64,000 nucleotides of DNA from Nannocystis bainbridge (GCF_028368995.1 NZ_JAQNDL010000002.1:1152001-1216000), one strand, 5' to 3'; numbered from the stretch's first letter, positions 9,266-62,077 are shown. Numbers and translations are program-made. Notes: a model not told the origin generated them from the letters alone.

Positions 9266-10873
9266 ATGACCGCGCCCACGCCGATCCGTCGCGCCCTCGT
9301 CAGCGTCAGCGACAAGACCCACCTCGAGGTCCTGGCGCAGATCCTCATCGACGCCCAGGTCGAGGTGCTGTCGACCGGAGGCACGTTCAAGTCGCTCGAA
9401 GCGCTCGGCGTCGCGGTCGTCAAGGTGAGCGAGTACACCGGTGCGCCCGAGATCCTCGGCGGGCGCGTCAAGACGCTGCACCCGAAGATCCACGGCGGCA
9501 TCCTGGCCCTGCCGACGCCGGCGCACGAGGCCGAGCTGCGGCTCCATGGCATCGCCCCGATCGACCTCGTGGTCGTCAACCTCTATCCGTTCCGCCAGGT
9601 GGTGGCGAAGCCCGGCAGCAGCTTCGAGGACGCGGTCGAGAACATCGACATCGGCGGCCCGGCGATGGTGCGCGCGGCGGCCAAGAACTGGCAGCGGGTG
9701 GCGGTGATCGTCGACCCGGCCGACTACGCGCGCGTCGGCGCGGCGCTGCGCGAGCACGGCGGCGCGCTGCCCGAGAGCCTGCGGCGGTCGCTGATGCGCA
9801 AGGCCTACGCGCACACGGCCGCCTACGACGCGGCGATCGCCGGCTACCTGGCGCGCTTCGACGACGGCGGCCTGTCCCTCGAGACAGATGCGCTGCCCGA
9901 GCAGCTGCTCGTCGCCGGCGCCGCCCAGGGCGAGCTGCGCTACGGCGAGAACCCGCACCAGCCGGCCCGCTTCTACGCCACCGAGCAGGCGGCCGGCGAG
10001 CCGGCGGGGCTCCACCGAGCCGTCCAGCACCAGGGCAAGGCGCTCTCGTACAACAACCTGCTCGACGCCGACGCGGCGCTCGGCCTGTGCCGCGACCTCA
10101 GCCGCCTGGGCCCGGCGGCGGCCGTCATCAAGCACGTGTCGCCCTGCGGCGCGGCGATCGCCCGCGGCGACGAGACGCTGGCCGACGTGTACGTGCGCGC
10201 CCGCGAGGCCGACGCCGAGAGCGCCTTCGGCGGGATCGTGGCGCTGTCCGGCCCGGTCGATCGCGCCGTCGCCGAGCGCCTGGCCGAGACCTTCCTCGAG
10301 GTCGTGATCGCGCCGTCGTTCACCCCCGAGGCGCTGGCGCTGCTGGCCGCCAAGAAGAACCTGCGCCTGCTCAGCCTCGAGGACATGTTCGTCGGGACAG
10401 GTCCCGAGAGCCAGCCGGCGCTGCGCCTGCGCTCGATCGCCGGCGGCCTGCTGGCCCAGCGCGAGGACGCGGTGTCGGTCGCGGCGGCGCAGGGCCGGGT
10501 GACGACCCGCCGCGCGCCGACGGCCGCGGAGCTGCGGGACCTCGAGCTGGCGCAGATCGTCGGCAAGGCGGTCCGCTCCAACGCGATCGTGCTGTGCAAG
10601 GACGGCGCGACGGTCGGCATCGGCGGCGGGCAGACCTCGCGCGTCGAGGCGGCCAGGCAAGCGACGGCCCGCGCGGGGGCGCGCGCGCAGGGGGCGGTGC
10701 TCGCCTCCGACGCGTTCTTCCCGTTCCGCGACGGGGTCGACGCGGCGGCCGCGGCCGGGGTCACGGCGATCGTCCAGCCCGGCGGCTCGGTCCGCGACGA
10801 GGAGGTCGTGACCGCGGCCGACGAGCACGGCGTGGCGATGGTGTTCACCGGTCAGCGGCACTTCCGGCACTGA
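9266..10873 (+). CDS. purH: Bifunctional AICAR transformylase / IMP cyclohydrolase
   Basis: [56 protein letters not shown]. Confidence 0.98.
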
Positions 10874-10882
10874 GGCCGCGAC

Positions 10883-10938
10883 TATCTCTCCAAACAGGTC
10901 CGAAAGGACAGGTGCGATCGTGCATGTCCCGAAGAGCA
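10883..10938. repeat. Four phased 14-bp elements filling the purH-purD gap
   Basis: TATCTctccAAACA GGTCCgaaaGGACA GGTGCgatcGTGCA TGTCCcgaaGAGCA. Confidence 0.75.
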
Positions 10939-10940
10939 GC

Positions 10941-12212
10941 TTGAAGGTCCTGATCGTCGGCGGCGGCGGCCGCGAGCACGCGCTGGCGTGGCGCTGCCGG
11001 ATCGAGGGCCATGAGGCCCACGCCGCGCCGGGCAGCGACGGCATCGCCGAGGACGCGACCTGCCACGCCGTCGGCGTCGGCGACCTCGCCGGCCTGGTCG
11101 CGCTGGCCGACGCGCTGGGCCCGGACCTGGTGATCGTCGGGCCCGAGCAGCCGCTGGTCGACGGGCTGGCCGACCGCCTGCGCGCGGCCGGACACGCGGT
11201 GTTCGGGCCGTCGGCGGCGGCCGCGGAGCTCGAGGGCAGCAAGGCGGTGGCCAAGGCGTTCATGGCCCGCCACGCGATCCCGACGGCCAAGCACGTCACG
11301 GCCACCAGGCTCGACGAGGCGCTGGCGGCGGTGCGATCGTTCGCCAGCCCGCCGGTGATCAAGGCCAGCGGCCTGGCGGCGGGCAAGGGCGTGGTCGTGC
11401 CCGAGAGCTTCGAGGAGGCGGAGCTGGCCGTTCGTTCCTGTCTCGAAGGACATGTCTTCGGCGACGCCGGGGCGACGGTGGTGCTCGAGGAGCGGCTGCA
11501 CGGCGAGGAGGCGTCGCTGTTCGTGCTGACCGACGGCGAGCGCTGGAGCCTCCTGCCGCCGGCGCAGGACCACAAGCGCCTGCGCGACGGCGACCAGGGG
11601 CCGAACACGGGCGGGATGGGCGCTTACTGCCCGGCGCCGGTGTGCGACGCGGCGGTGCTGCGGCGGGCGGAGCAGGAGATCGTGGCGCCGACGCTGGCCG
11701 GGCTGCGCGCGGAGGGACGGACGTTCGTCGGCGTGCTGTTCGTCGGCCTGATGATCGCGCCGGACGGCACTCCGAAGGTGATCGAGTACAACTGCCGCTT
11801 CGGCGATCCGGAGGCGCAGCCGGTGCTGTTCGGGCTGCAGACGCCGATCGTCGCCGACCTGCTGGCGGCCGCCCGCGGCGAGTTGACGCCGCGGACCTAC
11901 GCGGCCGCACCGGCCGCCAGCGTGGTGGTCGCCGCGGCGAACTATCCCGGCGAGACCCGGCCGGGCGCGGCGCTCCGCGGGCTCGAGGCCGCCGCAGGGC
12001 TCGCCGACGTCAAGGTGTTCCACGCCGGCACGCGTCGCGGCGCGCACGGCTGGGAGACCCGCGGCGGGCGGGTGCTGGGGGTCTGCGCTCGCGGCGACGA
12101 TCTGCGGGCGGCCATCGAGCGCGCCTACGCGGCGCTGGCCGCCATCGAGGTCGAGGGCGGCCAGTACCGCCGTGATATCGGCGTGCGAGCGCTCACCCGT
12201 CGCGGCGATTGA
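10941..12212 (+). CDS. purD: Phosphoribosylamine-glycine ligase
   Basis: [52 protein letters not shown]; TTG start at 10941 chosen. Confidence 0.97.
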
Positions 12213-12279
12213 GGCGGGCCCGTCCGCGCGGGCAGGGGTCGGCCACGCCGCGCGGAGGAAGCGTGGTATACGCCCGGCA

Positions 12280-13575: not shown

Positions 13576-14822
13576 GCGCAGGGCTGCCCGAGGGCGCCCT
13601 CGCGGTGCTGCCGCGCGGCGCCCGTGACCTGCTGCCCGGCGCCGCCCGGCGCCGGCGCGCGCTGACCGAGGCGCTGCTGGCCGGGTTCGACCGCTGGGGC
13701 TATGACCCGGTGGTGACGCCGGCGATCGAGTACTTCGCGGTGTTCGGCCGCTGGCTGGCCGAGCGCGAGCGGCAGCGCTGCGTCCGCTTCATCGAGGCCG
13801 GCTCGGGCGAACTCGTGACGCTGCGCTCCGACATCACGCCGCAGATCGCCCGCCTCGCCGAGCAGCAGCTGCGCGAGCGGCTGGCGGCCGGCGAGGCGGT
13901 GCGCCTGTGCTACGCGGCCGACGTCGTCCGCCTGTCCGAAGGGACACGTGAGCAGGCCGAGCGCCACCAGGTCGGGGTCGAGCTGCTCGGCGACGACGCG
14001 CCCGAGGCCGACGCCGAGCTGATCCTGCTGGCCGACGAGGCGCTGCGGGCCGCAGGCGTGACGGCGGCCACGATCGAGGTCGCCGACGTCGGCATCGCCC
14101 GCGGGGTGTTCGAGCGCCTGCCGAGCTGCGACGTGGAAGCGCTGCACGGGCTGCTGGCGCGCAAGGACGCCGGCGGAGTGGCGCGCTTCGCCGCCGGGCT
14201 GGCGCTGGGCGAGGCGCCGCGGCGCTGGCTCGGGCTGCTCTGTGAGCTGTTCGGAGCGCCAGGTATTTTGGGACATGTCCCCGCGGACATCCGCGCGCGC
14301 TGGCCGTGGCTGGCCGAGCGGCTGGCGCGGCTCGAGGCGACGCTCGCGGTGGTGGAGGCGCGCGCGCCGGAGCTGCACGCGCGCCTCGTGGTCGACCTCG
14401 GCGAGGTGCGCGGCTTCGACTACTACACCGGGCTGCGGCTGCGCGCCTGGGCTCCGGGCTCGGCGCGGCCGCTGGTGGTCGGCGGGCGCTACGCCGGCGG
14501 GGCGGGCTTCGCGGTCGAGCTCGACGCGCTCGAGGCCTCGCTCGACGCCGATGCGGTGACCACGGCGACCCGGGCGGGCGGGGTGATGATCGCGATCCAG
14601 AGTCGAGAGCCGCGGGCGCGAGCGCTGGCGGCGGGGCGCGCGGGGGTCGAACGGGCCGCCGGGCGGCGCGCATGGGTCCAGGTGGGGCTGTCCCTCGAGA
14701 CAGCTCAGGCCGCGGCCGCGGAGGCGGACGCGCTGGTGTACTTCGGCGCCGACGAGCGGGCCGAGATCTGGTCGCAAAGACAGCCGGGCGCGTGGCGCCG
14801 GGCGGAGGAGAGCGGAGCATGA
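13572..14822 (+). CDS. hisZ: ATP phosphoribosyltransferase regulatory subunit
   Basis: LPRGARDLLP, TPAIEY, LRSDITPQIAR, QVGVELLG, DYYTG, GGRY; TTG start overlaps the upstream stop; lies directly before purA. Confidence 0.88.
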   Translation: MSAGLPEGALAVLPRGARDLLPGAARRRRALTEALLAGFDRWGYDPVVTPAIEYFAVFGRWLAERERQRCVRFIEAGSGELVTLRSDITPQIARLAEQQLRERLAAGEAVRLCYAADVVRLSEGTREQAERHQVGVELLGDDAPEADAELILLADEALRAAGVTAATIEVADVGIARGVFERLPSCDVEALHGLLARKDAGGVARFAAGLALGEAPRRWLGLLCELFGAPGILGHVPADIRARWPWLAERLARLEATLAVVEARAPELHARLVVDLGEVRGFDYYTGLRLRAWAPGSARPLVVGGRYAGGAGFAVELDALEASLDADAVTTATRAGGVMIAIQSREPRARALAAGRAGVERAAGRRAWVQVGLSLETAQAAAAEADALVYFGADERAEIWSQRQPGAWRRAEESGA

Positions 14823-18200: not shown

Positions 18201-18229
18201 GTTCGGCACACGCACCGACTCGCAGTCAG

Positions 18230-19761: not shown

Positions 19762-20556
19762 TCAACGGACAGGTGGGCCTTCGAGCTCGAGGTCGGCCAG
19801 GCGCGCGCGGACCCTGGCCATGAACGCGGGCCCGGGGTCGACCTTGCGGGTGCGGTACTTGGGATCGCGCTCGACGAAGTAGGGGTGTCCCTCCATCGCC
19901 AGGTACTCGTGGTGCCCGATCAAGTGCGTGATCGCGGGGAAGCGGGCCTTGAGGTGGCGGACCAGGGCCGCGTCGGCCTCGACCTGGGCGTCGGTCAGGA
20001 GGTGCGCTTCGAGGTCGCCGACGTTCTCGACGCCGATGGCGACGTGGTTGAGTCCGACGCAGTGACGCGCCATCGAGGTCTCCGGCATGAGGCGGAAGAT
20101 CGTGCCGTCGCGGTCGACCAGGAACTGCGAGGAGACGTTGAGATCGCCGGCGGCGGCGATCGCCTTGCGCCCGCTCTCGATGGTCGGGCGGTCGAAGTAG
20201 CGCCAGGTGGCGTCAGCCGAGCCGCCGCCGGTGTGGTGGAGGACGATCATGCGCGGCTCGATCGCTACGCTGTCGGCGGCGGGATCCTGGTGCGCGCGGC
20301 GGTAGGCGATCGTGCGGGCGACCCGGGCCTCGTCGTAGGTGATCGGGCGGTCGACGAGCACCGGCGCCGACGGGGCCGAGGGCTCGGTCGGGGTCGGAAC
20401 TTGGATGTCCTCGGGGGCATGTCCGATAGGACCGGACCCTTCGGGCAGGTTCGAGGGGACATGTTCCGAAGGACGCGTGATGGGAGGCGCCGGCGCAGGC
20501 TCGGGCGGGGCGCAGGCGGCCGCGAGCGCCGCAGCCAGCAGCCAGCCGAGAGCCAC
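19762..20556 (-). CDS. N-acetylmuramoyl-L-alanine amidase (Amidase_2 / PGRP-like), lipoprotein
   Basis: IVLHHT, SSQFLV, ARHCVGLNHVAIGVENVG, LIGHHEY, KVDPG; lipobox-like LAAAC. Start uncertain (GTG 20556 or ATG 20727). Confidence 0.88.
   Translation of the reverse strand: MALGWLLAAALAAACAPPEPAPAPPITRPSEHVPSNLPEGSGPIGHAPEDIQVPTPTEPSAPSAPVLVDRPITYDEARVARTIAYRRAHQDPAADSVAIEPRMIVLHHTGGGSADATWRYFDRPTIESGRKAIAAAGDLNVSSQFLVDRDGTIFRLMPETSMARHCVGLNHVAIGVENVGDLEAHLLTDAQVEADAALVRHLKARFPAITHLIGHHEYLAMEGHPYFVERDPKYRTRKVDPGPAFMARVRARLADLELEGPPVR
20406..20475. repeat. Five phased 14-bp elements inside the amidase coding linker
   Basis: TGTCCtcggGGGCA TGTCCgataGGACC GGACCcttcGGGCA GGTTCgaggGGACA TGTTCcgaaGGACG. 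Confidence 0.8.
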
Positions 20557-20564: not shown

Positions 20565-20670
20565 GTTCGCTCGCTCGCCGGCGGGCGCGCGTGAAGGACC
20601 GGAGCTCGCTCGCCCGGCGGGCTGCGACGCGCGTGAAGGACGGGGGCTCGCTCACCCAACGGGCCGCGAC
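20565..20670. repeat. Imperfect 42-bp tandem repeat (about 2.5 copies)
   Basis: gcgcgtgaaggacnggngctcgctc recurs at 20587 and 20629. Confidence 0.65.
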
Positions 20671-20716
20671 GGTCGTGACGAGCTGTGACGGGCCGCGGGC
20701 GGCAGGGCCCGGGCGC

Positions 20717-28372: not shown

Positions 28373-29119
28373 CTACGGTCCGCGCGCGACCAGCAGGCCG
28401 TCGGCGACCAGGCCGGCCAGCAGCTCGTCGGCCTCGTGCGGCTCGGCGCCCAGGCGCACCGCCTCGGCCGTCAGCTCGGCGCGCGGGCGGCCGTCGCCAG
28501 CGAATTGAAGCAAGCGGACGAGCGGTTCGCTGGCTGTCCCGAGAGACACCTCGCCGCCGGGGCCGGCCTCGACCAGCAGCGGCTCGCGGTCGGGCCCGCG
28601 GGGCGGCTTCTCGCGTGCGGAGCGGGCGGTCGCCAGGGTCGTCGCGGGGTCGGGCCCGAGGCGGGCGCGCATGCGCTCGAGGCAGGCGAGGCTGCCTTTC
28701 GGGACCCGCAGCGGGGCCACGCATGGGTTGCACGCCAGGCCCTCGCCGGCGCCGGGGCGCGGGCGGCGGGCGTGGGCGATCGCCGCTTCGATCCGGCCTG
28801 GGCCACCGGCCTGTCCTCCGAGCCATGTCCCGAAGGACATGGCCATCGAACCATGTTCGAACACGCAGGTGCGGAACGCCGCCGACGAGAAGAACGCGTC
28901 GACCGCCGGCACGCCGAGCAGCGCCGCCGTGGCCGGGTACTCCTCGAGCAGGGCGTGCACGGCCCGGGCGCGGCGGTACGGATCGACGGTCAGGGCCCGG
29001 GGGTCGACGGCGCGCAGCAGCGACCGCTCGCGCTCGGCCAGCTCGGGCAGCGGCCCGGCGCCGCGCACCGCCGCGGCGTAGGCGGGGTCGAGGTGCATGC
29101 AGACGAGCGCGGCCTGCAC
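28373..29119 (-). CDS. Putative MNIO partner protein (DUF2063/HvfC-like position)
   Basis: Directly downstream of DUF692 (possible CTG start at 29143 overlapping its stop); LLEEYPATAALLG segment and C-terminal wHTH-like ADELLAGLVADGLLV. Confidence 0.6.
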   Translation of the reverse strand: MQAALVCMHLDPAYAAAVRGAGPLPELAERERSLLRAVDPRALTVDPYRRARAVHALLEEYPATAALLGVPAVDAFFSSAAFRTCVFEHGSMAMSFGTWLGGQAGGPGRIEAAIAHARRPRPGAGEGLACNPCVAPLRVPKGSLACLERMRARLGPDPATTLATARSAREKPPRGPDREPLLVEAGPGGEVSLGTASEPLVRLLQFAGDGRPRAELTAEAVRLGAEPHEADELLAGLVADGLLVARGP

Positions 29120-29139
29120 GCGGCGAGGGTCGAGGCGGC

Positions 29140-30021
29140 TCAGGCGGCCTCCGGGCCGCGCGCGGGCCACAGCGCGGCCACGCGGTCGAACAGCGGCAGC
29201 ACGGCGTCGATCGGGTTGCGCTCGCACTCGACGACGATCGAGCGCAGGTTGACCGCGCGCCGGGCCGCCTCGTTGGCGATGTCCCAGGTGTCCGGGAGGA
29301 CCTCCGTGCCGTGATCGTCCTCGACCCACGCGAGCCCGGCGGTGTCGTGGACGCGACCGCCGGCGACGTGCAGCTCGACCACGCGGTCCCACGGGAACCC
29401 GTCGAAGCCGGTCCGCGGGGCGTGGCCGCGGGCCCGCTGGAACATGGCCAGGTGGGCGCAGTCGAGCAGCAGCCCGGTGTCGGCGCGCTCGGCGACGCGG
29501 GCGAAGAAGTCGAGCAGGTGCATGTCGCCGACGAACGCGGCGCCCGGCGGGTTCTCGGGCAGCACCTCGAGGCCGGTCGCCTCGCGCAGCGCCTGCAGGC
29601 CGTCAGCCAGCGGCCCGATCGCCTCCTCGACGAGGATCGGCGGCAGCAGCAGCATGTGCCCGCGGTCGCGGCGGCCGAGGTGCCACAGCCCGGCGTCGCC
29701 GCACAGCCACGCCGGCCGCAGCTCGCCGGCGATCGTGCGCACGGCGGCCAGCCACTCGGGGTCGAAGTCTTCGGGCTCGTCGAGGTTGATGTCGAGGAAG
29801 TGGTAGGTGGTGGGCAGGCCGGCGGCGGCCCACGCCCGCGCGTCGTCGTCGAGGCCCTTGACGACCTCGACGCCGACCTCGAGGAAGCCGGCGCAGTCGG
29901 GCCGGCGCCGCCGCAGCTCGAGCGGGTCGAGCGCGCCGTCCTGGCGCCGCGCGCCGTACTCGGTGCTGACGCCGAGGCCGAGGCGCGGCAGGGCGCGGAC
30001 GCGGTCGAGGAAGTCGGGCAT
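29140..30021 (-). CDS. DUF692 / multinuclear non-heme iron oxidase (MNIO; MbnB/TglH family)
   Basis: LGLGV, FLEV, YHFLDINL, LLLPP, PENPP, GLLLDCAHL, VELHVAGG, EDDH, IVVECER. Confidence 0.88.
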   Translation of the reverse strand: MPDFLDRVRALPRLGLGVSTEYGARRQDGALDPLELRRRRPDCAGFLEVGVEVVKGLDDDARAWAAAGLPTTYHFLDINLDEPEDFDPEWLAAVRTIAGELRPAWLCGDAGLWHLGRRDRGHMLLLPPILVEEAIGPLADGLQALREATGLEVLPENPPGAAFVGDMHLLDFFARVAERADTGLLLDCAHLAMFQRARGHAPRTGFDGFPWDRVVELHVAGGRVHDTAGLAWVEDDHGTEVLPDTWDIANEAARRAVNLRSIVVECERNPIDAVLPLFDRVAALWPARGPEAA

Positions 30022-30085
30022 TCGGGACAGGTCCGTGAGAACATGTCCGATCGGGCAGGTCCTCAAGGACATGCCCGTTCGGACA
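30016..30085. repeat. Phased 14-bp element array between the GST and MNIO genes
   Basis: GGGCAttcgGGACA GGTCCgtgaGAACA TGTCCgatcGGGCA GGTCCtcaaGGACA TGCCCgttcGGACA. Confidence 0.85.
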
Positions 30086-30096
30086 TGGCAGATCGG

Positions 30097-30720
30097 TCAG
30101 CCGGCTTCGACCGCGCGGTTGGCCGGGCGGCTGACGCAGCGCTCGATCCACGCGCCGACGGCCGGGTAGGCGGCGATGTCGGTCTTGATGAAGCTCAGGG
30201 CCCAGGCGAGCGCCGCGGCGTTCGCGGCGTCGACGAGGGTGAAGCCGCTGCCGACCAGGTACTCGCGGCCCTGCAGGCGCTGGTCGAGGACCTTGAGCGC
30301 GGCCTCGAACTCCTTGGTGGCGGCCTCGGCCTGGAGGGCGTTGCGCGAGTCGGCGGGGAACCACTCGCTGGTGTTGAAGAAGATGCGGAAGATGGTGCCG
30401 CCGAGGGTGACCGAGCCCCACACGCTCCACGACAGCGCCTCGGCGTACTCGCTGGAGCCGACGCGCGGCCACAGGCCCTTGTCGACGCCGAAGCGGTCGC
30501 CGAGGTAGAGGATGATCGCCAGCGACTCGAACAACGGGGTGCCGTCGACGACCAGCGCGGGCACCTTGCCGTTGGGGTTGATGGCCAGGAATTCGGGCTT
30601 GTGCTGGTCGCCGGCGCGGAGGTCCAGCTTGACCTTGTCGTAAGGGACGCCGAGCTCCTCGAGGACCCAGTGGACGCGTGAGGCGCTCGTGTGGGGGGTG
30701 TAATAGAACGTGATCGACAT
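30097..30720 (-). CDS. Glutathione S-transferase family protein
   Basis: RVHWVLEELGVPY, INPNGKVPAL, LFESLAIILYL, YLVGSGFTLVD. Confidence 0.95.
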   Translation of the reverse strand: MSITFYYTPHTSASRVHWVLEELGVPYDKVKLDLRAGDQHKPEFLAINPNGKVPALVVDGTPLFESLAIILYLGDRFGVDKGLWPRVGSSEYAEALSWSVWGSVTLGGTIFRIFFNTSEWFPADSRNALQAEAATKEFEAALKVLDQRLQGREYLVGSGFTLVDAANAAALAWALSFIKTDIAAYPAVGAWIERCVSRPANRAVEAG

Positions 30721-30795
30721 GGGGCCTGGTCTCCGCGGGTTATGTACGCGATCGGGCGGCGCAGGGGTAGGCGAGCGCAGCGGTCGGGGCTCGGG

Positions 30796-32673
30796 TCAGG
30801 TGGGGATGCAGTGGACCAGCAGCCACTGGTTGCTGGTGCCGGGGCCGATCTCGCGGCGCTCGAGCGCTTCGAGGCGCAGGTCGAGCGCGGCGGCGGCGGC
30901 CTCGATCCGCCGGACGGCCGCGGCCGCGTCGTCGTTGCGGTAGTGCTCGCGGCGGGCGCTCGAGCGCTCGCCGCGGGTGGTCTGCGCCGGCGTGCGAGCC
31001 AGGCCGAACGCTGTGTTGTCGCAGACGACGAGCACGCCGCCGGGCCGCAGTCGCGACAGGGCCGTGACGAGCACGCGATCGGGGTCGCGCAGGTGGTTGT
31101 AGCTGCGCAGGATCGTGACGGCGTCGAAGCGGCGTTCGCCGAGCTCGAGCGCCTCGGCGTCGCCGCGCTCGAGCGTCGCGCCGGGCGGCAGGCGGGCGCG
31201 CAGGCGGGTCAGCGCGGCCTCGTCGGGGTCGACGCCGGTGTAGCGGATCCCGCCGGCGGCGATCCGCGGGGCCAGGACCTCGAGGTAGGGCGCGTCGCCG
31301 CAGCCGAGGTCGAGGACGTCGCCGACGAGCGCGGCGAGGCGGGCGCGCACGGCCGCGTCGTCGCGGGTAAAGATGTCCTCGAAGACAGGTTCGAACATCC
31401 CCGTGCACGCGGAGAAGTGCGGGCAGCCGGCGCACAGCGGGCTGCGGGTCAGCGGCACCAGCTCGCGGGCGAAGTCCTGCGGCGCCGGACCGCGGGCGGC
31501 GTCGACGTAGACCTGGCCGAGGTCGTGCTTGACCGCGGCGATCTCCTCGTCGGTGAAGTCGCGGGTGTCGGCGCGGTAGCGGGCGATCGCGGCGCCGCGG
31601 CGGACGAACAGGTGACGGCCGCGCTCCCACGGGGTGACGCCGAGCGGCCCCTGTCGCAAGGGACAGGTGCCCTCGGCGGCCTCGTGCACCGCCTCGAGCG
31701 TGTAGTTGAAGGAGTTGGCGCGCGGGCGATCGGTGACCGGGCGCAGCTCGCCGGCGCCGTGGACCTCGTGGTAGCCGCGGTAGAGCCCGGGGCAGCCGCC
31801 GCGCAGGCTGCAGCCGTCGCAGGCCGGCGGGTGGCGCTTGTTGTCGTCGTCGACCGGGAACAGGTCGGGCTCGCCGATCTCGACCATGGTCCAGTAGCGG
31901 TGGCTGCGGAGGTCGCTGTAGCTGTCCTCGAGGCCAGGTACGAGGCAGCGTGGGATGCCGCCGTGCTGGACCCGGACGCCGCGCTCGCGGGCGTGCGCGG
32001 CGGCGGCGACGACGGCCTCGGCGACGGCGGCGACCCGCGGGACCAGCAGCTCGAAGTTGCGGGCCGCGCCGCCTTTGGGCTCGACCATCGAGAACTTGAG
32101 GGTGACGCCGGCGAACCCGGCGACGAGGTCGACGAGGCCGCGCAGGTGGGCGACGTTCTGGCGGGTGACGACGCAGTTGACGGTGAGGTCGAGGTCGCGG
32201 CCGGCGAGGTTGCGCAGGGCGGCCACGGCCTGATCGAAGGCGTCGCTGCGGACCAGGCGGTTGTGCACCGGGGCGCTGCCGCCGTGCAGCGAGAGGTAGA
32301 CGTAGCGCAGGCGGTGGGCGAGGAGCTTGTCGGTGAGCTCGGGGTAGGCGAGCGCGCGGCCGTTGGTGACGAGGCCGAGGTCGAGGCCGAGGTCGGCGAT
32401 CCGCGCGGCCCAGCGGAGCAGCTCGGGCCGGATCGTCGGCTCGCCGCCGGACAGGACGACCATGCTGTGTCCGAGCTCGGCGGCGCGGAGGATCTTGCGC
32501 TCGACCTCCTCGGCGTCGCCGTCGATCGGGCGCACATCGAGCGTGTGACAAAAGGTGCAGTGCTCGTTGCAGCCGTAGCCGACCTTGATCAGCGCCTTGT
32601 AGTCGCCGGGCTGGAGCCTCGGGGGCCGCGGGGGCCGCGGGCCGGCCCATGCGGGGTGGGAGCGATCGTCCAT
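30796..32673 (-). CDS. Radical SAM enzyme fused to a C-terminal class I SAM methyltransferase
   Basis: CNEHCTFC, SGGEPTI, VTNG, SLHG, two CX2CX5C motifs (CDGCSLRGGCPG, CAGCPHFSACTG), VLDLGCGDAPY, SYNHLRDP. Confidence 0.9.
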   Translation of the reverse strand: MDDRSHPAWAGPRPPRPPRLQPGDYKALIKVGYGCNEHCTFCHTLDVRPIDGDAEEVERKILRAAELGHSMVVLSGGEPTIRPELLRWAARIADLGLDLGLVTNGRALAYPELTDKLLAHRLRYVYLSLHGGSAPVHNRLVRSDAFDQAVAALRNLAGRDLDLTVNCVVTRQNVAHLRGLVDLVAGFAGVTLKFSMVEPKGGAARNFELLVPRVAAVAEAVVAAAAHARERGVRVQHGGIPRCLVPGLEDSYSDLRSHRYWTMVEIGEPDLFPVDDDNKRHPPACDGCSLRGGCPGLYRGYHEVHGAGELRPVTDRPRANSFNYTLEAVHEAAEGTCPLRQGPLGVTPWERGRHLFVRRGAAIARYRADTRDFTDEEIAAVKHDLGQVYVDAARGPAPQDFARELVPLTRSPLCAGCPHFSACTGMFEPVFEDIFTRDDAAVRARLAALVGDVLDLGCGDAPYLEVLAPRIAAGGIRYTGVDPDEAALTRLRARLPPGATLERGDAEALELGERRFDAVTILRSYNHLRDPDRVLVTALSRLRPGGVLVVCDNTAFGLARTPAQTTRGERSSARREHYRNDDAAAAVRRIEAAAAALDLRLEALERREIGPGTSNQWLLVHCIPT

Positions 32674-33393: not shown

Positions 33394-33413
33394 GCGGCGC
33401 CGCGGCGAGGCCC

Positions 33414-33579
33414 TGTCTGGAGGGACAGGGCGTTCGGGACATGTCGTATGGGGCAGGTGCGAAAGGTCCTGTCCGAACGGACAGGGCGCTGCGAACATGG
33501 CGCGAGGGACAGAGCGCCTGTTTGAAAGGACAGGCGTGGTGCGTGGTGCGTGAGGCAGGAGCGCCTGTCCGAAGGGACA
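33414..33579. repeat. Long phased 14-bp element array (7 contiguous units plus 2 more)
   Basis: TGTCTggagGGACA...TGTCCgaacGGACA...TGGCGcgagGGACA (33414-33511), TGTTTgaaaGGACA (33519), TGTCCgaagGGACA (33566). Confidence 0.85.
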
Positions 33580-33580
33580 G

Positions 33581-34426
33581 GTGGATGTGAGCCTGGCGGG
33601 CGTCGAGCCGGCGAGCGCGGACGGCCAGAGCGCTCTCGCGGCGCTCGTGCGCGCGGGCGGCGGGACGCTGACGCTGGCGGGGGCCGAGGTGCCGGTGCTC
33701 GCGGCCTGGGCTGCGGCGGCGCGGGCGGCCGGGTTCGCGCGCGTGTGGGTCGCGGCAGGGCCGGCGGGGCTGACGGCGGAGGCGCTCGCGGGGCTCGCGG
33801 GCGCGGGGCTGGGCGGGCTGCGGCTGCGACTGTACGCGGCCGAGGCGGCGGCGCACGACTACCACGCCGGTCACGAGGGATCGTTCCGGGCCACGCTGGG
33901 GACGGCCCGGGCGGCCCGGGCGGCGCGGCTGCCGGTGACGGTGACGACGCCGCTGACGCGCTCCAATTCGCGGGTGATGGCGGCGCTGCCGGGGCTGCTC
34001 GCGGACATCGGCGCGCTCGGGTGGCAGGTAGCGACGGTGGCGGCGGGCGGCTCGGCGAACCACGGGGCGGTGGCGCCGCGGCTGGCGGTCGCGCTGCCCT
34101 ACGCGCTGCAGGCGATGGTGGCGGCGGAGCGCGTCGGTCTGTTGGCCGCGATCGCCGGGGCGCCGCTGTGCTTGCTCGGGCCGCTGCGCGATCGCTCGGT
34201 GGCGACGCCGGTGCGGGCGTTCGCCGACGCGTGCAGCGGTTGTGCGCTGCGGCCGGGCTGTCCGGGGCTCGACGCCGCGTACCTGGGCCGCTTCGGCGCG
34301 GGCGAGCTGGTGCCGGTGACGCAGGGCGGGGGGCCGGTGGCGAGCGGCGCGCGGTCGATGAAACTCCGGGACATGTTCTCGGGGCCATGGCTCGAGCTGT
34401 CGGAGGGCCCGTGCTGGCCGATCTGA
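33581..34426 (+). CDS. Radical SAM-fold homolog lacking the CX3CX2C motif, with a C-terminal CX2CX5C
   Basis: AHDYHAGHEGSFRATL, PLTRSN, PLCLLG, CSGCALRPGCPG; in-frame stop at 33551 rules out an upstream cluster motif. Confidence 0.7.
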   Translation: MDVSLAGVEPASADGQSALAALVRAGGGTLTLAGAEVPVLAAWAAAARAAGFARVWVAAGPAGLTAEALAGLAGAGLGGLRLRLYAAEAAAHDYHAGHEGSFRATLGTARAARAARLPVTVTTPLTRSNSRVMAALPGLLADIGALGWQVATVAAGGSANHGAVAPRLAVALPYALQAMVAAERVGLLAAIAGAPLCLLGPLRDRSVATPVRAFADACSGCALRPGCPGLDAAYLGRFGAGELVPVTQGGGPVASGARSMKLRDMFSGPWLELSEGPCWPI

Positions 34427-36508: not shown

Positions 36509-36510
36509 GG

Positions 36511-36641
36511 CGCGCGGGCAGGGGGCGACCGACCGAGCGCGCCATGACGACGCGCGGGCAGGGGGCGACCGACCGAGCGCGCCATGACGACGCGCGGGCA
36601 GGGGGCGACCGACCGAGCGCGCCATGACGACGCGCGGGCAG
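36511..36641. repeat. Perfect 40-bp tandem repeat, 3.25 copies
   Basis: cgcgcgggcagggggcgaccgaccgagcgcgccatgacga x3, followed by a duplicated gggccgactctgctgccgat (36652, 36694). Confidence 0.95.
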
Positions 36642-40101: not shown

Positions 40102-40266
40102 CGTCGCGGCGGACATGGCCTTGCGAACATGTCCTTCAGGGCATGGCCGCAGAGGCATGTCGACACGAGGTGATTCTGCTGTCTCTTCGGGCATGTCCTT
40201 CGGGGCATGGTCGAAGGGTCATGCGGCGCTCGGGGACCTGCCTCGCGCCATATGGCCTGCGGGACA
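40102..40266. repeat. Several phased 14-bp element arrays between tRNA-Leu and the convergent lipoprotein gene
   Basis: TGGCCttgcGAACA TGTCCttcaGGGCA TGGCCgcagAGGCA; TGTCTcttcGGGCA TGTCCttcgGGGCA TGGTCgaagGGTCA; TGGCCtgcgGGACA. Confidence 0.85.
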
Positions 40267-41366: not shown

Positions 41367-41554
41367 GATGCGAGGCTAGTCGGCGCCCGTGCGCGGGGGC
41401 AAGGGCAACGACGCGCCGGCGCAATTTCGCCCGTGGGACCGCTGCGCGGCGGATTGGCTGGATCTGGAGGGAATGGACCTGGCGGAAGGGACAGGTCGCG
41501 CGAGGTGGGGGCTTCTGGCGACGACATGTCCCGGGGCTCGTGACGCGCACGAGC

Positions 41555-41802
41555 GATATGTCGGAAGGGACAGGTCGTGTGCTCGCGGCGGGTGAGGTTG
41601 ATATGTCGGAATGGACAGGTCGTTCGCTCGCGGCGGCGAGGTCGACATGTCGCAAGGGACAGGTACATCGTGCTCGCGGCGGGTGAGGTTGATATGTCAG
41701 AAGGGACAGGTCGTGCGCTCGCGGCGGGCGAGGCCGACATGTCGCAAGGGATAGGTCGTTCGCTCGCGGCGGTCATGTCGACATATCGCAAGGGACAGGT
41801 CG
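41555..41802. repeat. About 45-bp tandem repeat, 5.5 copies, each carrying one 14-bp element
   Basis: gaYatgtcgSaagggacaggtcgt..gctcgcggcgg.gagg starting at 41555, 41600, 41644, 41691, 41736, 41780. Confidence 0.9.
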
Positions 41803-48025: not shown

Positions 48026-48427
48026 ATGACGGACGCGGCGATCGCCACTCACCCGCGGATCGATCCAAGCCTGTGCGGCGCGCCGGTCTCGGTCGCGCCC
48101 GGGCGCGCCGAGGTGCGGCTGGTGGCGACGCCGGTGATGGCGGTCGACGACCTCGGTCTGTGCCACGGCGGCTTCGTGTTCGGCGCCGCCGACTACGCGG
48201 CGATGCTGGCGGTCAACGACCCCAACGTCGTGCTCGGCGCGGCGACGGTCAAGTTCCTGAAGCCGGTGCGGGTCGGCGACGCCGTGCTGGCCCGTGCGAC
48301 ATGTCCGAACGAACATGGCCGAAAGCGCATGATCGCGGTCGAGGTCGTGCGCGAGGCGGGCGGCGAGGTCGTGTTCACCGGCGAGTTCGCGTGCTTCGTC
48401 CTCGACAAGCACGTGCTGGCCGGCTGA
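48026..48427 (+). CDS. PaaI-type hot-dog fold thioesterase
   Basis: [30 protein letters not shown]. Confidence 0.88.
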
Positions 48428-50360: not shown

Positions 50361-52967
50361 ATGCTCGTCCGCCTCGCCCCTGGGACCCGCGCACTGCTCG
50401 TCTCGTCGCTCGTCGCCTGCAACCCCGCGGATTCGGGGCCGCCGGCCGACACCGAAGACACCGGCGATACCGGCTTCATGGGCGATCCGGAGGTGTTCTC
50501 GGAGCTGTCGGCGCCGGTCGACATCCACATCGACGCGCGCGGCGTGCCGCACATCTACGGCGAGACCGACGCCGACGTGTTCTTCGCTTCGGGCTACCAG
50601 GTCGCGGTCGATCGTCTGTTCCAGATGGACCTGATGCGGCGCCGCGCGTACGGGCGCGGGGCAGAGGTGCTGGGCGCGGCCAAGATCGACGAGGACCGGA
50701 TCTCGCGGCTTTTCGATTTCCCGCGCTGGGGCCGGCTCGACGCCGAGCGACTCAAGCAGGAGAGCCCCGGCGAGTACCACCTGTTCACCGCGTGGACGGC
50801 CGGGGTCAATCGCCGCATCGAGGAGGTCAACTCGGGCGCGGCGCCGCTGCCGTACGGGTTCGGCAAGGCCGAGCTGAACTACGCGCCCGAGCCGTGGGAC
50901 CCGGTCGACGCGGTGGTGATCGGCAAGATGATCAGCTTCGGCAACTCGAACGTGCTCGAGTACGAGTTCCTGGCCACGGTGGTCAGCCGCTTCGTGCCGC
51001 AGGTGCTCGAGGTCGTGCAGCTGCCGCGGCCCGGCTGGGAGGCCTACACCGTGCCGCCGGAGGATCGTCCGGCGGCCGGCGCGGCCCCGGCACCGGGTCC
51101 CGAGTCGAACAAGTCTTCGGGACATGTCTCAAAGAACAGGTCCAAAGAGCCAGCCCGCGAATTCCCGCCGGACACCGCCGCCTCGCTGCGCCGGCTGCAC
51201 TCCGCGCTGTCGGGCTTCCGCGTGGTCGGCAGCAACAACTGGGCGGTCGACGGGCGCTTCACCGCCAGCGGCAAGCCGCTGATCGCCAACGATCCGCACC
51301 AGCCGCTGCAGAGCCCCGCGGTGATGTACGCCTTGCACCTCAACAGCGCCGACGCCGGCGGCCTGTTCGACGTCGCCGGCTTCGGGTTCGCCGGCCTGCC
51401 CGGGGTGCAGCTCGGCCACAACCGCAAGATCCACTGGGCGGCGACCACCGGCTTCGCCGACTGCATGGACCTCTATGCTGTCACGCTGGCGCCCGACCAG
51501 GCCACGATCGCCATCGGCGGCGCGACGGCGCCGGTGGTCTGGCGCGACGAGGTGATCAAGGTCGCAGGCATGGGCGACCGCAGCTTCCGCGTCGGCGACG
51601 TCGAGGGCCACGGGGTGCTCGTCGGCGACGCGCTGCCGCTCGATCCGCTGCTCGCGGTCGACCCGGCGCGGCGGCTGCTGATCAACTGGACCGGCTTCCG
51701 CGCGACCAATGAGGCGCGCGCGTTCCTGCGGATGGGCAAGGCGCAGTCGATCGACGAGTGGGAGCGGGCGGTCGACATGATCGAGGTCGGCACCTTCAAC
51801 TGGATGGCCGCCGACGCCACCGGCATCACCTATCACCTCAACACCCACGTGCCCGATCGCGGCGCGCCGGCGGGGCGGCCGATGCCGATCCGCGTGGTCG
51901 ACGGCGACGACCCGGCCTACGTGTGGAGCGGCAAGTTCTTGCCGGCCGAGCAGCTGCCGCGCAGCCGCGCGCCGCAGACCGGCTTCATCGTCACCGCCAA
52001 CAACGACCCGTGGGGCTTCACCGCCGACGGCGACCTCAGCAACGACCCCTGGTACTACGGCGCCTTCTACGACCCGGGCTACCGCGCGGGGCGGGTCGAG
52101 CAGCGGCTGCAAGCGCTGACGCAGGCCGGCAAGGTCACGGTCGCCGACATGCAGTCGATCCAGTCCGACACCCACAGCCTGGTCGCCGACAAGATGCTGC
52201 CGGTGCTCGCCGAGGTGTACGCCAAGGTCGCGACCGACGACACGCTGCTGAAGTACCGCGGGCGCAAAGACCTCGAGGTGCTGCACGACCTGCTGACGAA
52301 GCAGTGGAACCGGCGCATGGATCGCCAGGAGTCGGGCGCGCTGGCGTTCCACGCGTTCGCGCATTTCCTGGTCCAGCGGATCTTCGAGGACGACCTCGCC
52401 CTGGTGTTCGGCGCGATCATGGACGCGTCGCCGGTGTACGCGCTCAAGTTCGCCGCGCTGGCGGCCACCGGCATGTATCCCAACGCCAACGAGTTGATGC
52501 AGGAGGGCCGCGATTTCCTGGTGATGGAGGCGCTGGTCGACGCCTCCGACTGGCTGGTCGCCGAGTTCGGCTCGGTCGCGCCGCACCGCTATCGCTGGGG
52601 CGACCGCCACGGCACCGGCTTCCGCAACGCCTACGGCGGTGAGCTCGACGGCGGCTGGCACCCGACCGACGGCGGCGAGGACACCGTCAACGTCTCGGGC
52701 AGCTCGTTCTTCGAGTCCGACTCGACCGACGTGCGCGAGCGCTTCGAGTCGAACGACGGCGCGGTCTTCCGTGTCATCACCGGCTTCGACGGCGAGGGGG
52801 TGCCGCAGGCGGTCGTCAACTTCCCGCCGGGCAACAGCGCCGATCCGTCCAGCCCGCACTTCGCCGACACGCTCTCGGACTGGATCGAGGATCGTTACCA
52901 TCACTACCCGTTCCGCCGGCACGAGGTCGACGCCGTGACGCAGGAGACGGTCACGCTCGAGCCGTGA
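50361..52967 (+). CDS. Penicillin acylase / AHL acylase family Ntn hydrolase, lipoprotein
   Basis: Lipobox LVAC, DARGVPHIY, DRLFQMDL, G-SNNW nucleophile, LIANDPH, TANN, PPGNS. Confidence 0.92.
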   Translation: MLVRLAPGTRALLVSSLVACNPADSGPPADTEDTGDTGFMGDPEVFSELSAPVDIHIDARGVPHIYGETDADVFFASGYQVAVDRLFQMDLMRRRAYGRGAEVLGAAKIDEDRISRLFDFPRWGRLDAERLKQESPGEYHLFTAWTAGVNRRIEEVNSGAAPLPYGFGKAELNYAPEPWDPVDAVVIGKMISFGNSNVLEYEFLATVVSRFVPQVLEVVQLPRPGWEAYTVPPEDRPAAGAAPAPGPESNKSSGHVSKNRSKEPAREFPPDTAASLRRLHSALSGFRVVGSNNWAVDGRFTASGKPLIANDPHQPLQSPAVMYALHLNSADAGGLFDVAGFGFAGLPGVQLGHNRKIHWAATTGFADCMDLYAVTLAPDQATIAIGGATAPVVWRDEVIKVAGMGDRSFRVGDVEGHGVLVGDALPLDPLLAVDPARRLLINWTGFRATNEARAFLRMGKAQSIDEWERAVDMIEVGTFNWMAADATGITYHLNTHVPDRGAPAGRPMPIRVVDGDDPAYVWSGKFLPAEQLPRSRAPQTGFIVTANNDPWGFTADGDLSNDPWYYGAFYDPGYRAGRVEQRLQALTQAGKVTVADMQSIQSDTHSLVADKMLPVLAEVYAKVATDDTLLKYRGRKDLEVLHDLLTKQWNRRMDRQESGALAFHAFAHFLVQRIFEDDLALVFGAIMDASPVYALKFAALAATGMYPNANELMQEGRDFLVMEALVDASDWLVAEFGSVAPHRYRWGDRHGTGFRNAYGGELDGGWHPTDGGEDTVNVSGSSFFESDSTDVRERFESNDGAVFRVITGFDGEGVPQAVVNFPPGNSADPSSPHFADTLSDWIEDRYHHYPFRRHEVDAVTQETVTLEP

Positions 52968-54225: not shown

Positions 54226-54239
54226 GGCGCGGGCAGGGC

Positions 54240-54323
54240 TGCCCTTGAGGGCATGTCCGCGCGGACATGTCCGAGAGGGCATGTTCGCGCGGACATGTCT
54301 GACAGGGCATGTCCGTGCGGACA
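54240..54323. repeat. Six contiguous 14-bp elements (cleanest array in the window)
   Basis: TGCCCttgaGGGCA TGTCCgcgcGGACA TGTCCgagaGGGCA TGTTCgcgcGGACA TGTCTgacaGGGCA TGTCCgtgcGGACA. Confidence 0.95.
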
Positions 54324-54373
54324 TGACGCAAGCGCGGCGTCGCCATGCGCGAGGTCAGGCGCAGAAAGCGGCA

Positions 54374-54403
54374 CAGCCGCCTCCCCGAGGGGAAGGCGGC
54401 TGT
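54374..54403. terminator. Hairpin between convergent genes
   Basis: acagccgcct...aggcggctgt inverted repeat. Confidence 0.55.
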
Positions 54404-54426
54404 GACAGGCCGGTGTCGAGCCGGGC

Positions 54427-60530: not shown

Positions 60531-60751
60531 CGGCGGCAACTCTCCGCCGGCCGGCGGCTGGGTGCAATCCCTCCGAGCCGGCGCGTCCACGACCGTCGTC
60601 GCGGCGCGTCGCCGCGATCGGCAGCCGAGCCACGGCCGACTCGCGCAAACCCCCGGAAGGGCTCGCGCAGGGCGTTGCGCACCGCGGCAGCATGACATCC
60701 CGCACGCGGGATCCGAAGGGGCCGCAGTGCTTGCGGTCCTATTCTTGGATC

Positions 60752-62077
60752 GTGCCTCAGCCCTCCGTCGCTGCACCGGATCTGGCGGCCTGCGCCGCGC
60801 GTCGCTCCCGCCTGTCCGCGCGCCTCGGCGACGCCGCGCTGCTGCTGTCCGCCGGCGAGCCGCCGACCCGCTCCGGCGACACGCGCTACCGCTTCCGGCC
60901 GGACTCGAACTTCTATTATCTGACCGGGGCCGCCGAGCCCGGCAGCGTGCTGCTGCTGCGGCCAGGTCGGGCGCCCGCGAGCGCGCTGTTCCTGCCGGTC
61001 CAGGACGAGCGCGACGTGCTGTACCACGGCCGGCGGCCGAGCCCGGACGAGGCCCGCGAGCAGTTCGGCGTCGACGCGGTGTTCCCGGTCGCGCAGCTCG
61101 AGCTCGAGCTGCCGCGCCTGCTCGACGGCGTCGAGGAGTTGTACCTGCCCTTTTCGACATGTCCCGTGATCGAGCGGGCGGCGTTCGCCGCGATCGAGCG
61201 GCTGCGCGCCGGCGATCGCCGGGGCGAGGTCGCGCCGACCTGGCTGGGCGACGCGCGGACGCTGCTGGCCGAGGACCGCCTGGTCAAGGACGCGGCCGCG
61301 ATGACGGCGCTGCGGCGCGCGGTCGACATCAGCGCGGCCGGCCACGTGGCGGCGATGCGGGCGACCCGGCCCGGTCGGCTCGAGCTCGAGATCGAGGCGC
61401 TGCTCGAGCACGAGTTCCGCCGCCGCGGCGCGAGCGGGCCCGGGTACGAGACGATCGTGGCCGCGGGCGCCAACGCCAACACGCTCCACTACACGTCCGC
61501 CCGCGGGGCGCTCGGCGCGGGCGAGCTGCTGCTGGTCGACGCCGGCGCGGAGTGGGAGCTGTTCACCGGCGACATCACGCGCACGTTCCCGATCAGCGGC
61601 CGCTTCACGCCGCCGCAGCGCGACGCCTACGAGATCGCGCTGGCCGCCAACGAGGCCGGGATCGCGGCGTCGGTGATCGGCTCGAGCCTCGACGCGATCC
61701 ACGAGGCGTGCCTGCGGGTCCTGTGCGACGGGCTGCGGACGCTGGGCCTGGTGCGCGCGGGCGTCGACGAGGCGATCGAGGACGAGCTTTACAAGCCTTA
61801 CTACCCGCACAAGACCAGCCACTGGCTAGGCGCCGATGTCCACGACGTCGGCCGCTACACGGTCGACGGCCGCGCCCAGCCGCTGCGCGCCGGCTTCGTG
61901 CTGACGGTCGAGCCGGGCCTGTACTTCCCGGCCACCGCCGAGGTGCCCGCGGGGCTGCGCGGGGTGGGGATCCGCGTCGAGGACGACGTGCTGGTGACGG
62001 CCGGCGCGCCGGAGGTGCTCAGCGCCGGGGCGCCCAAGCGGGTCGCCGAGCTCGAGGCGCTGGTCGGGCAGGGCTGA
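60752..62077 (+). CDS. pepP: Xaa-Pro aminopeptidase
   Basis: YRFRPDSNFYYLTG, NANTLHY, LLVDAG...GDITRTFP, HKTSHWLGADVHD, TVEPGLY, GIRVEDD; start uncertain. Confidence 0.93.
   Translation: MPQPSVAAPDLAACAARRSRLSARLGDAALLLSAGEPPTRSGDTRYRFRPDSNFYYLTGAAEPGSVLLLRPGRAPASALFLPVQDERDVLYHGRRPSPDEAREQFGVDAVFPVAQLELELPRLLDGVEELYLPFSTCPVIERAAFAAIERLRAGDRRGEVAPTWLGDARTLLAEDRLVKDAAAMTALRRAVDISAAGHVAAMRATRPGRLELEIEALLEHEFRRRGASGPGYETIVAAGANANTLHYTSARGALGAGELLLVDAGAEWELFTGDITRTFPISGRFTPPQRDAYEIALAANEAGIAASVIGSSLDAIHEACLRVLCDGLRTLGLVRAGVDEAIEDELYKPYYPHKTSHWLGADVHDVGRYTVDGRAQPLRAGFVLTVEPGLYFPATAEVPAGLRGVGIRVEDDVLVTAGAPEVLSAGAPKRVAELEALVGQG

Follow-up and report, generated by a model that had tools for sequence, protein, structure and literature searches.

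The 64,000-nucleotide stretch of the Nannocystis bainbridge genome analysed here (G000:C3:1152001-1216000, hereafter the window; the genome, G000, has 11.05 Mb and 71-72% GC) carries many copies of a 10-bp palindrome, GGACATGTCC, which follow each other in a 14-bp register and lie both between genes and inside protein-coding sequence. The element is abundant, phased, restricted to one clade and characteristically placed along the genome; inside genes it overrides the codon bias, it is conserved across species, and its coding copies split into substitutions and insertions. The reading that stands is that a genus-wide force, acting at the level of DNA, writes and holds the phased palindrome in genes, for the most part by replacing tolerant residues, and in linkers through insertion or expansion.

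A phased palindrome and its coding copies

A base profile around 2,237 GACATGTC cores defined the unit as the palindrome GGACATGTCC plus a 4-bp variable spacer; the consensus recurs at -14 and +14 of the cores and more weakly at +/-28, and the same profile had no conserved flank, terminal repeat or target duplication around the units. Regarding its abundance, the genome has 956 exact copies of GGACATGTCC against 17 expected from an order-3 Markov model, a 56-fold excess that places it first among palindromic 10-mers by over-representation (it is also top in a second species, G010); 3,160 units have one mismatch and 8,718 have two. The 2 Mb of contig C3 hold 220, 762 and 1,840 units at 0, 1 and 2 mismatches, compared with 9, 94 and 1,028 in a 2-Mb simulation with the order-3 model, and the window itself holds 7, 28 and 57. 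Among consecutive hits with at most two mismatches, spacings of exactly 14, 28 and 42 bp occur 2,654, 579 and 161 times, respectively, and no other distance between 5 and 100 bp is seen more than 49 times. When chained, the units form 2,196 arrays of two units, and 523, 296, 202, 115, 32, 6 and 4 arrays of three to nine units, respectively; all five contigs carry arrays, which rules out a regional clustering.

As for its distribution, this hyper-abundant palindrome, GGACATGTCC, is specific to Nannocystis. A double-unit pattern (at most two mismatches) had 848 matches in N. bainbridge, and it was present in all 10 same-genus genomes (7-532 matches each) and in one of 20 relatives of other genera, with 2 matches; the reversed pattern, taken as a control, matched none of the genus genomes and gave a single match in one of the other-genus relatives. 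When one genome per species was scanned for exact matches, over 185,579 species, 78 stretches were returned, 75 of them titled Nannocystis, Nannocystaceae or Myxococcales. A trace of the element occurs in a genome of the sister genus, G013 (G013:C29:100001-900000), where 800 kb contain 5 exact copies of the 10-mer (0.3 expected) and 12 phased pairs. The literature search found no description of the element and no paper that joins the 10-mer with Nannocystis or myxobacterial terms.

Genes were defined with a simple caller of our own build, based on codon log-odds, which gave 8,177 genes and 84% coding sequence. With these calls, 1,065 of the 3,374 arrays of at least two units (32%) are wholly in open reading frames (ORFs), 315 are partly so and 1,994 are intergenic, at densities of 0.11 per kb in ORFs and 1.16 per kb between genes. 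The coding arrays far exceed chance: after codons are shuffled inside each gene, 23-24 two-unit arrays remain and longer ones disappear, and with the count limited to 2,700 confident genes and to positions no closer than 30 codons to either end, 568 arrays were found versus 6-19 expected. Within ORFs, a partner unit is found at +14 bp 415 times and at +28 bp 135 times, and at most 12 times at any other offset of 10-30 bp. Moreover, 135 of the 318 exact units in ORFs are isolated, versus 5 expected; this 27-fold enrichment indicates that the unit itself is favoured, not hairpin pairs alone, and points to recognition of the duplex palindrome itself. Lone units with two mismatches have no such enrichment (4,582 observed versus 5,644-5,855 after codon shuffling).

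By size, the ORF arrays number 832, 152, 57, 11 and 13 for two, three, four, five and at least six units. The original prediction had pointed out that three units, 42 bp, preserve the reading frame; three-unit arrays have no special favour in ORFs, but a few arrays do show a 42-bp in-frame duplication, as indicated by identical spacers three units apart (5 versus 1.1 expected, 47 pairs). An origin of the arrays as one long palindrome or by simple duplication was discarded, with spacers mostly unrelated to each other and complementary or identical ones only slightly in excess; identical adjacent spacers in intergenic arrays number 77 versus 18.9 expected.

Inside genes, the units are written over the codon bias. 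The GC content at third positions (GC3) is 0.940 in all genes and 0.654 in arrays; ACA accounts for 74% of Thr codons in arrays versus 2.2% genome-wide, with the result that arrays, 0.31% of all codons, contain 12.3% of all ACA codons, and CAT accounts for 90% of His codons versus 10% genome-wide; GGA, TGT and AGG are enriched in the same way. The skew extends to synonymous choice, since at residues identical to those of the outgroup G013, 75 of 195 codons (38.5%) end in A or T in arrays, versus 3.8% of 19,983 elsewhere. The central claim of the original prediction, an element that enters coding sequence in spite of codon bias, is thus borne out by rare codons and synonymous choice, together with the peptides and the retention across species that are described below.

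Regarding the peptides, the prediction named DMS, TCP and GHV as recurring products of the element, and across the proteome they occur 2.58, 1.74 and 1.48 times as often as expected, respectively, with DMS ranking 18 of 5,579 tripeptides by enrichment; the DMF of PurH, named with them, is instead ancestral, and is found in other genera that lack the element. Both the raised tripeptides and this ancestral DMF would suit an explanation in which selection for peptide motifs (DMS, GHV, TGP), or a by-product of composition, and not a DNA element, creates the pattern. Such an explanation is hardly credible: the 10-mer is about 10 times denser in non-coding DNA and uses all three frames, synonymous codons are shifted at conserved residues, and codon shuffling removes the element.

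Selection at the protein level opposes the arrays, as seen from a frame bias, from the avoidance of cysteine and from depletion in codon-biased genes. The three reading frames hold 821, 641 and 1,020 units, and two-unit arrays combine GHV with DMS 444 times, DMS with TCP 276 times and TCP with GHV 111 times. Position 6 of the motif, when read in the Cys frame, is T in 49% and G in 49% of units, the G turning TGT (Cys) into GGT (Gly); T reaches 84-85% in the other frames and 91% between genes. Array density falls across codon-bias quintiles, from 0.180 per kb in the least biased genes to 0.054 per kb in the most biased ones, and two-unit arrays are spread through proteins and are not confined to domain boundaries.

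Conservation was measured on one species pair, by comparing 727 kb of the N. bainbridge genome (G000:C3:780207-1506963) with the syntenic contig G010:C2 (788 kb) at ~90% identity; the background identities are 0.937, 0.955 and 0.857 for the first, second and third codon positions and 0.848 for intergenic sequence. Third positions within the CATG core of coding arrays are identical in 0.942 of cases (325/345) versus the 0.857 of the background (Fisher p = 7e-7), the flanking motif bases in 0.827 and the spacer in 0.593; between genes, core identity is 0.927 versus 0.848. At third positions with A or T the difference is larger, with 0.889 identical in the core (112/126) and 0.721 in the flanks, versus 0.409 in the background (n = 10,262; Fisher p = 7e-29), which means that the rare codons are not transient. 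In short, the motif is held in place while the spacer drifts freely. It was also observed that spacers are less alike than any background class (0.59 at third positions and between genes, versus 0.85-0.86), and that their G/C third positions are 0.566 identical versus 0.882 elsewhere, as if the usual GC3 pressure were absent inside arrays.

Among the 111 coding arrays of the syntenic region, 19 are unaligned, 59 are retained at the same length, 18 have the same length and fall below the threshold in G010, mostly by one extra mismatch, and 15 differ in length; hence, length is the same in 77 of the 92 aligned arrays, and a multiple of 14 bp accounts for only 2 of the 15 differences. In genes without an alignment to G010, 3 arrays were counted in 23 kb, too few to judge any depletion.

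Gene 3' ends and hairpins

Between genes, arrays are densest in convergent gaps (3.32 per kb, with one in 47% of these gaps), followed by tandem gaps (1.10) and divergent ones (0.35); in tandem gaps, the upstream stop codon is at a median of 53 bp from the array and the next start at 186 bp. These densities and the closeness to the stop codon are the signature of a 3'-end element. The folds of the window's intergenic arrays are far more stable than those of shuffled versions (z between -4.1 and -9.0). The six-unit array at 54249-54328, which starts 24 bp past a stop codon in a convergent gap and exemplifies the main habitat of the element, folds as a long hairpin (-61.4 kcal/mol, z = -9.0); the others are a five-unit array at 30025-30090, between two minus-strand genes (z = -5.4), a seven-unit array at 33409-33502 (z = -5.8), and two arrays of four and two units at 40111-40212 (z = -4.1).

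Adjacent intergenic units show 1,336 compensatory changes versus 863 expected (1.55-fold), with within-unit changes that are anti-correlated, and G.U exceeds A.C on the sense strand only 1.32-fold, a weak strand asymmetry; inside ORFs no compensatory covariation was found between adjacent units (291 versus 340.5 expected, 0.85-fold) and the G.U ratio is 1.04 (811 versus 782). It follows that hairpin pairing matters between genes and not inside them. The possibility of RNA tetraloops was dismissed, because the commonest spacers lack a sense/antisense asymmetry, CGAA and TTCG occurring 57 and 56 times and CTTC and GAAG 53 and 47 times, and because of the small G.U excess given above. Compared with intrinsic terminators, the arrays have strong hairpins by fold z, but the base profile has no T run beside the units. 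The intergenic arrays are probably two-way transcript-end or protein-docking modules, and the intragenic copies would be tolerated by-products and not functional parts.

A different explanation gives the intragenic arrays a function of their own, either as mRNA hairpins that act with rare codons to delay ribosomes or RNA polymerase where domains meet, or as sites within the gene for 3'-end formation or processing. We hold it to be quite improbable. Long arrays do lie between domains (kinase-AAA, and DEAD/Helicase_C in two Lhr proteins) or in the C-terminal tail of an ACR_tran protein, they are rich in rare codons and stay in place across species, and some coding arrays fold better than their shuffled versions (z = -3.0, -4.1 and -3.4). 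However, the missing covariation and the missing sense-strand G.U excess in ORFs argue against it, as do the folds of five of the eight window coding arrays, which are weak or do not surpass those of shuffled sequences (z between +0.3 and -2.1), the occurrence of two-unit arrays away from domain boundaries, and the depletion from codon-biased genes, which is what a cost would produce.

Several tandem repeats were noted in the same window. At 8553-8586, between genes, a perfect 14-bp repeat of CTGTCCTTTTAGAC (2.3 copies) resembles an AT-rich variant of the phased unit. At 41554-41802, also intergenic, a 45-bp repeat of 5.5 copies, scored at periods of 91 and 136 bp as well, has in each copy a two-unit array and a GC-rich 21-bp segment, so that the element is embedded in a longer repeat unit. 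Finally, a 40-bp repeat at 36494-36641 (3.7 copies, 96% identity), at or just past the end of the ORF 35579-36508, is unrelated to the 14-bp element.

Substitutions, insertions and the arrays of the window

The original prediction left two inferences side by side, a DNA site that shapes protein sequence and arrays that invade tolerant linkers, and both hold, each for its own size class: two-unit arrays are mostly substitutions at the same length, at residues of low conservation, and arrays of at least four units are found in inter-domain linkers and tails and as lineage-specific insertions. Paralogues within the genome spanned 328 coding arrays, of which 235 are gapless and 33 are at least 50% opposite a gap; among 6,127 control segments, these numbers are 5,238 and 196, and residue identity is 33% at arrays versus 42% in controls. 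Outgroup orthologues (tblastn, 800 kb of G013) spanned 62 arrays, with 35 gapless and 12 at least 50% gapped, mainly the longer ones; the 1,156 control segments include 1,023 gapless and 17 at least 50% gapped, and identity is 41% at arrays versus 60% in controls. The residues that flank arrays differ little in hydrophobic fraction (0.275 versus 0.299).

The 80 coding arrays of at least four units are spread over many unrelated, mostly long genes and encode a 14-residue repeat such as ..DMS..TGP.GHV... Nine of the ten top-scoring hosts have Pfam matches, and in these nine of the ten long arrays fall outside all matched stretches, for instance in a kinase-AAA linker, in a variable region of a Mfd-like (TRCF) protein, or past the final domain of a transporter of the AcrB family (ACR_tran); the remaining one falls within the PHP domain of a DnaE-like polymerase, opposite a gap of 22 residues in the outgroup. 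This ranking favours long genes, and therefore the Lhr, Mfd-like and DnaE-like hosts may not reflect a functional bias. Two Lhr paralogues, L291 (G000:C1:1405501-1409877) and L295 (G000:C1:2586756-2591432), have arrays of four and six units in the same DEAD/Helicase_C linker.

These insertions raise the possibility that the arrays are small mobile or expanding DNA, similar to Rickettsia palindromic elements (RPEs), MITEs (miniature transposable elements with inverted repeats) or repetitive extragenic palindromes (REPs), and that the gene copies are insertions that survived in tolerant linkers and not rewritten codons. The outgroup test speaks for it, with arrays about 10 times likelier to stand opposite gaps (23.4% versus 2.2% of residues), as do the heavily gapped arrays, in excess of controls in both tests (12/62 versus 17/1,156, and 33/328 versus 196/6,127), the nine long arrays outside Pfam stretches together with the insertion in the PHP domain, the excess of identical spacers, which points to recent duplications of 14 or 42 bp in some arrays, and the coincidence of the PurH array with a loop that is 4-5 residues longer than in distant members of the genus. 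As a general account it is nevertheless unlikely: most arrays come without a length difference (235/328 in the paralogue test and 35/62 in the outgroup one), 77 of 92 have the same length in the second species and only 2 of the 15 differences there are a multiple of 14 bp, spacers are mostly unrelated, partnerless units are enriched 27-fold in ORFs, and the units have no flanking sequence, terminal repeat or target duplication around them, in a genome where no Y1/RAYT transposase was found.

Turning to the genes of the window, the prediction cited 13 coding sites, which were scored with a seed unit of at most two mismatches and phased neighbours of at most three. Seven are multi-unit arrays and one, in purD, is a good unit alone; the other five are at chance level, namely lon at 2261 (best unit with three mismatches), purH at 9873 (mismatches 3 and 4), the radical SAM gene at 31374 (3 and 3) and at 31652 (a lone unit with 2), and GDH at 60059 (also a lone unit with 2). 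The gene labels were right, as PurH, PurD, a HisZ-like protein, a 4HBT thioesterase, PepP, Lon, an NAD-GDH, a radical SAM protein and an MNIO enzyme beside the "partner" were all recognized. The window has eight coding arrays by gene calls, or nine with that of the amidase, and the shuffle rate predicts ~0.1; four relatives retain every one of them in place.

Ortholog alignments place the arrays of PepP, the thioesterase and the penicillin amidase in segments of equal length in outgroups. In pepP, the two-unit array at 61141-61164 (plus strand, mismatches 3 and 1) encodes LPFSTCPV between the AMP_N and Peptidase_M24 domains, and outgroups have other residues there, such as LPFHHAPD, ungapped. 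The 4HBT thioesterase array at 48297-48320 (plus strand, two units, mismatches 1 and 2) encodes ATCPNEHG, its outgroup counterpart is ARYTGDEG, and its spacers vary among close relatives. The penicillin amidase array at 51120-51143 (plus strand, two units, SGHVSKNRS), missed by the prediction, is located in a variable, low-complexity segment where the outgroup residues are unrelated.

Length does differ at two other genes. The hisZ-like gene carries a two-unit array at 14271-14294 (plus strand, mismatches 0 and 3, the first unit being exact) that reads ILGHVPADIR; it is present across the genus, including the more distant G009 as well as G006 and G002, and in outgroup genera the segment is 2-3 residues shorter and its residues are unrelated. 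The purH array at 10381-10404 (plus strand, two units, mismatches 1 and 1) encodes EDMFVGTGP in a variable loop of the AICARFT/IMPCHase domain; it is retained in the close same-genus relatives that were aligned and absent from more distant members of the genus, where the loop is 4-5 residues shorter. In G007:C2, purH (L009/L030) matches in two overlapping pieces, query residues 1-427 and 406-535, which suggests a frameshift or an assembly error. As for purD, its single unit at 11448-11457 (plus strand, one mismatch, EGHVF) has no phased partner at three mismatches or fewer; it is retained in four close relatives and degenerate in G009.

The amidase lipoprotein has a four-unit array at 20415-20466 (minus strand, mismatches 1, 3, 3 and 1) in the tether between lipobox and Amidase_2 domain. 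The array was confirmed, with four units under our scoring rule and five under the looser count of the prediction (20406-20475), and it is truly coding, as a minus-strand ORF crosses it, with an open frame and phasing retained in five species. The extended ORF has the lipobox LAAAC, the array at about residues 33-55 and Amidase_2 at residues 105-248. The gene caller had cut this gene short, which makes the coding count conservative near N-termini; in practical terms, arrays lower coding scores and led the caller to truncate a real lipoprotein gene. Upstream of this lipobox, at 20586-20678, a 42-bp tandem repeat (2.2 copies) keeps an open minus-strand frame and would read as a RVAARRASE-type peptide if translated.

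Three more arrays complete the set. A three-unit array at 28807-28844 (minus strand, mismatches 3, 2 and 1) is retained in four relatives; its host protein has no Pfam match, and the gene adjoins that of an MNIO (MbnB/TglH/ChrH) enzyme. The surroundings (28373-32673, minus strand) resemble a neighbourhood for ribosomally synthesized and post-translationally modified peptides, with the MNIO enzyme at 29140-30021, the array-bearing partner ORF, a GST and a radical SAM-methyltransferase fusion. The HExxH gene (ORF 34411-35577) holds a three-unit array at 34871-34908 (plus strand, mismatches 1, 3 and 1), with the same CATG cores and different spacers in four relatives. Lastly, a two-unit array at 34369-34392 (plus strand), near the 3' end of the ORF 33581-34426, had been overlooked by the prediction; the segment around it is duplicated in G001.

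Related systems and a possible motif reader

DNA uptake sequences (DUS) and HIP1 appear, by analogy, to be the closest counterparts of the element. Like DUS in Neisseria and uptake signal sequences (USS) in Pasteurellaceae, it is a short, clade-specific motif with hundreds to thousands of copies, and intergenic DUS copies are often downstream of genes, a further likeness. The study of Findlay & Redfield 2009 (PMC2817400) describes, for uptake sequences, tripeptides that are approximately doubled, a frame bias and a preference for poorly conserved residues, and a fragment of its table gives 34.5-65% of copies in ORFs; the corresponding traits here are a 1.5-2.6-fold rise in tripeptides, a frame bias, poorly conserved residues and 32% of the arrays in ORFs. 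Unlike DUS and USS, the units are palindromic and follow a strict 14-bp tandem register, in arrays of up to nine, they use rare rather than preferred codons, and the long arrays add 14-residue repeats to proteins.

HIP1 (GCGATCGC, cyanobacteria) is 15- to 300-fold over-represented and conserved within and between ORFs beyond neutral expectation (PMC5861425), the same two traits, hyper-abundance (here 56-fold) and conservation, that are found for GGACATGTCC. Methylases and DNA uptake have been proposed for it, the latter recently as an uptake signal (PMC13756078). HIP1 differs in sequence, length and phylum, it has no 14-bp tandem phasing, and it is not known to have the strong preference for gene 3' ends that is seen here; moreover, methylases are proposed for HIP1, and no genus-specific one was found for our element. 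What distinguishes the element from DUS and HIP1 is a 10-bp palindrome in a strict 14-bp tandem register, with a preference for gene 3' ends and with repeats added to proteins.

Two other families share some of these features. REPs, their mosaic arrangements (BIMEs) and REPINs are likewise palindromic, hairpin-forming, located just downstream of genes and rare in divergent promoter gaps; our units differ in having only 10 bp with variable spacers, and a REP/RAYT system is rejected, as no RAYT gene was found in the genome and a third of the arrays is intragenic, REPs being extragenic by definition. RPEs are selfish-looking palindromic DNA, translated as an extra peptide in tolerant regions, which would fit the long arrays. 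They are insertions of ~100-150 bp with one conserved sequence, unlike the 24-38 bp overwrites, mostly at the same length, that 14-bp units produce here. An insertion of RPE or MITE type was rejected, as there is no conserved flank beyond the phased units and most coding copies are length-neutral.

The reading that we favour, with moderate confidence, is that a force at the DNA level maintains GGACATGTCC, either selection for a factor that reads the motif or biased conversion, with gene copies that are mainly substitutions and longer ones that are insertions. This force would act chromosome-wide and would favour units in the 14-bp register, with gene 3' ends as the main habitat, where adjacent units could pair into hairpins. 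In tolerant proteins, point substitutions and rare synonymous codons would accumulate until one or two units lie over existing codons at unchanged length, and the overwritten codons would then give the peptides GHV, DMS and TCP/TGP. Longer arrays would build up as insertions in linkers, tails and surface loops, some in 42-bp in-frame steps that yield the 14-residue repeat. Protein selection, in turn, would disfavour the Cys frame, change TGT to GGT there, and exclude arrays from strongly codon-biased genes.

Several points weigh against this reading. The strict 14-bp register in ORFs, where hairpin covariation is absent, is not accounted for by a drive on single sites alone, and a highly conserved core fits selection and biased conversion alike. 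The conservation figures derive from one species pair and a crude gene caller, and the lowest codon-bias quintile may include false ORFs. In the outgroup G013 itself, A/T third positions are raised at the same residues (22.6% versus 12.0%), and part of the A/T signal may pre-date the element or reflect its trace presence there. A minority of the arrays, 12 of 62 by alignment, are true insertions, which look like mobile or expanding DNA, and insertions are under-counted because the paralogue and outgroup tests see only segments that can be aligned. No reader of the motif came out of the searches for enzymes that could act on it: RAYT (Y1 transposase, PF01797) had no match in the N. bainbridge genome (90.5% complete), the control search being positive in 6 of 14 reference genomes, and the search of this genome for a C5 methylase also came out empty. 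A Dam-class methylase is encoded in nine of 10 same-genus genomes, but also in six of eight genomes of other genera of the same family; no methylase tracks the element, the Dam-class one not being genus-specific, none could be linked to the motif, and target specificity is unreadable from sequence.

It is possible, and we propose it only tentatively, that Nannocystis has an undiscovered system that reads GGACATGTCC in the 14-bp register, be it a cooperative DNA binder, an uptake receptor or a conversion enzyme, and that this system maintains or writes the motif along the whole chromosome, ORFs included; the strict spacing is a clue to the geometry of such a reader. The only well-studied parallels are uptake sequences and HIP1, the function of the latter being debated after thirty years, and a second, unrelated palindrome offers an independent system for asking what maintains such motifs. 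It also presents a clear conflict between a signal at the DNA level and the protein code, as in genes with 94% GC3 the A/T-ending codons of the motif are retained at twice the rate found elsewhere, and its footprint on the proteome is visible in the tripeptides and in the 14-residue repeat. If such a system exists, hundreds of genes take on rare codons through a code at the DNA level, and this code gives rise to a new linker repeat of 14 residues (DMS-TGP-GHV) in proteins such as Lhr, Mfd, a DnaE-like polymerase and kinases, and protein evolution in this genus would, to that extent, be driven by a DNA motif.

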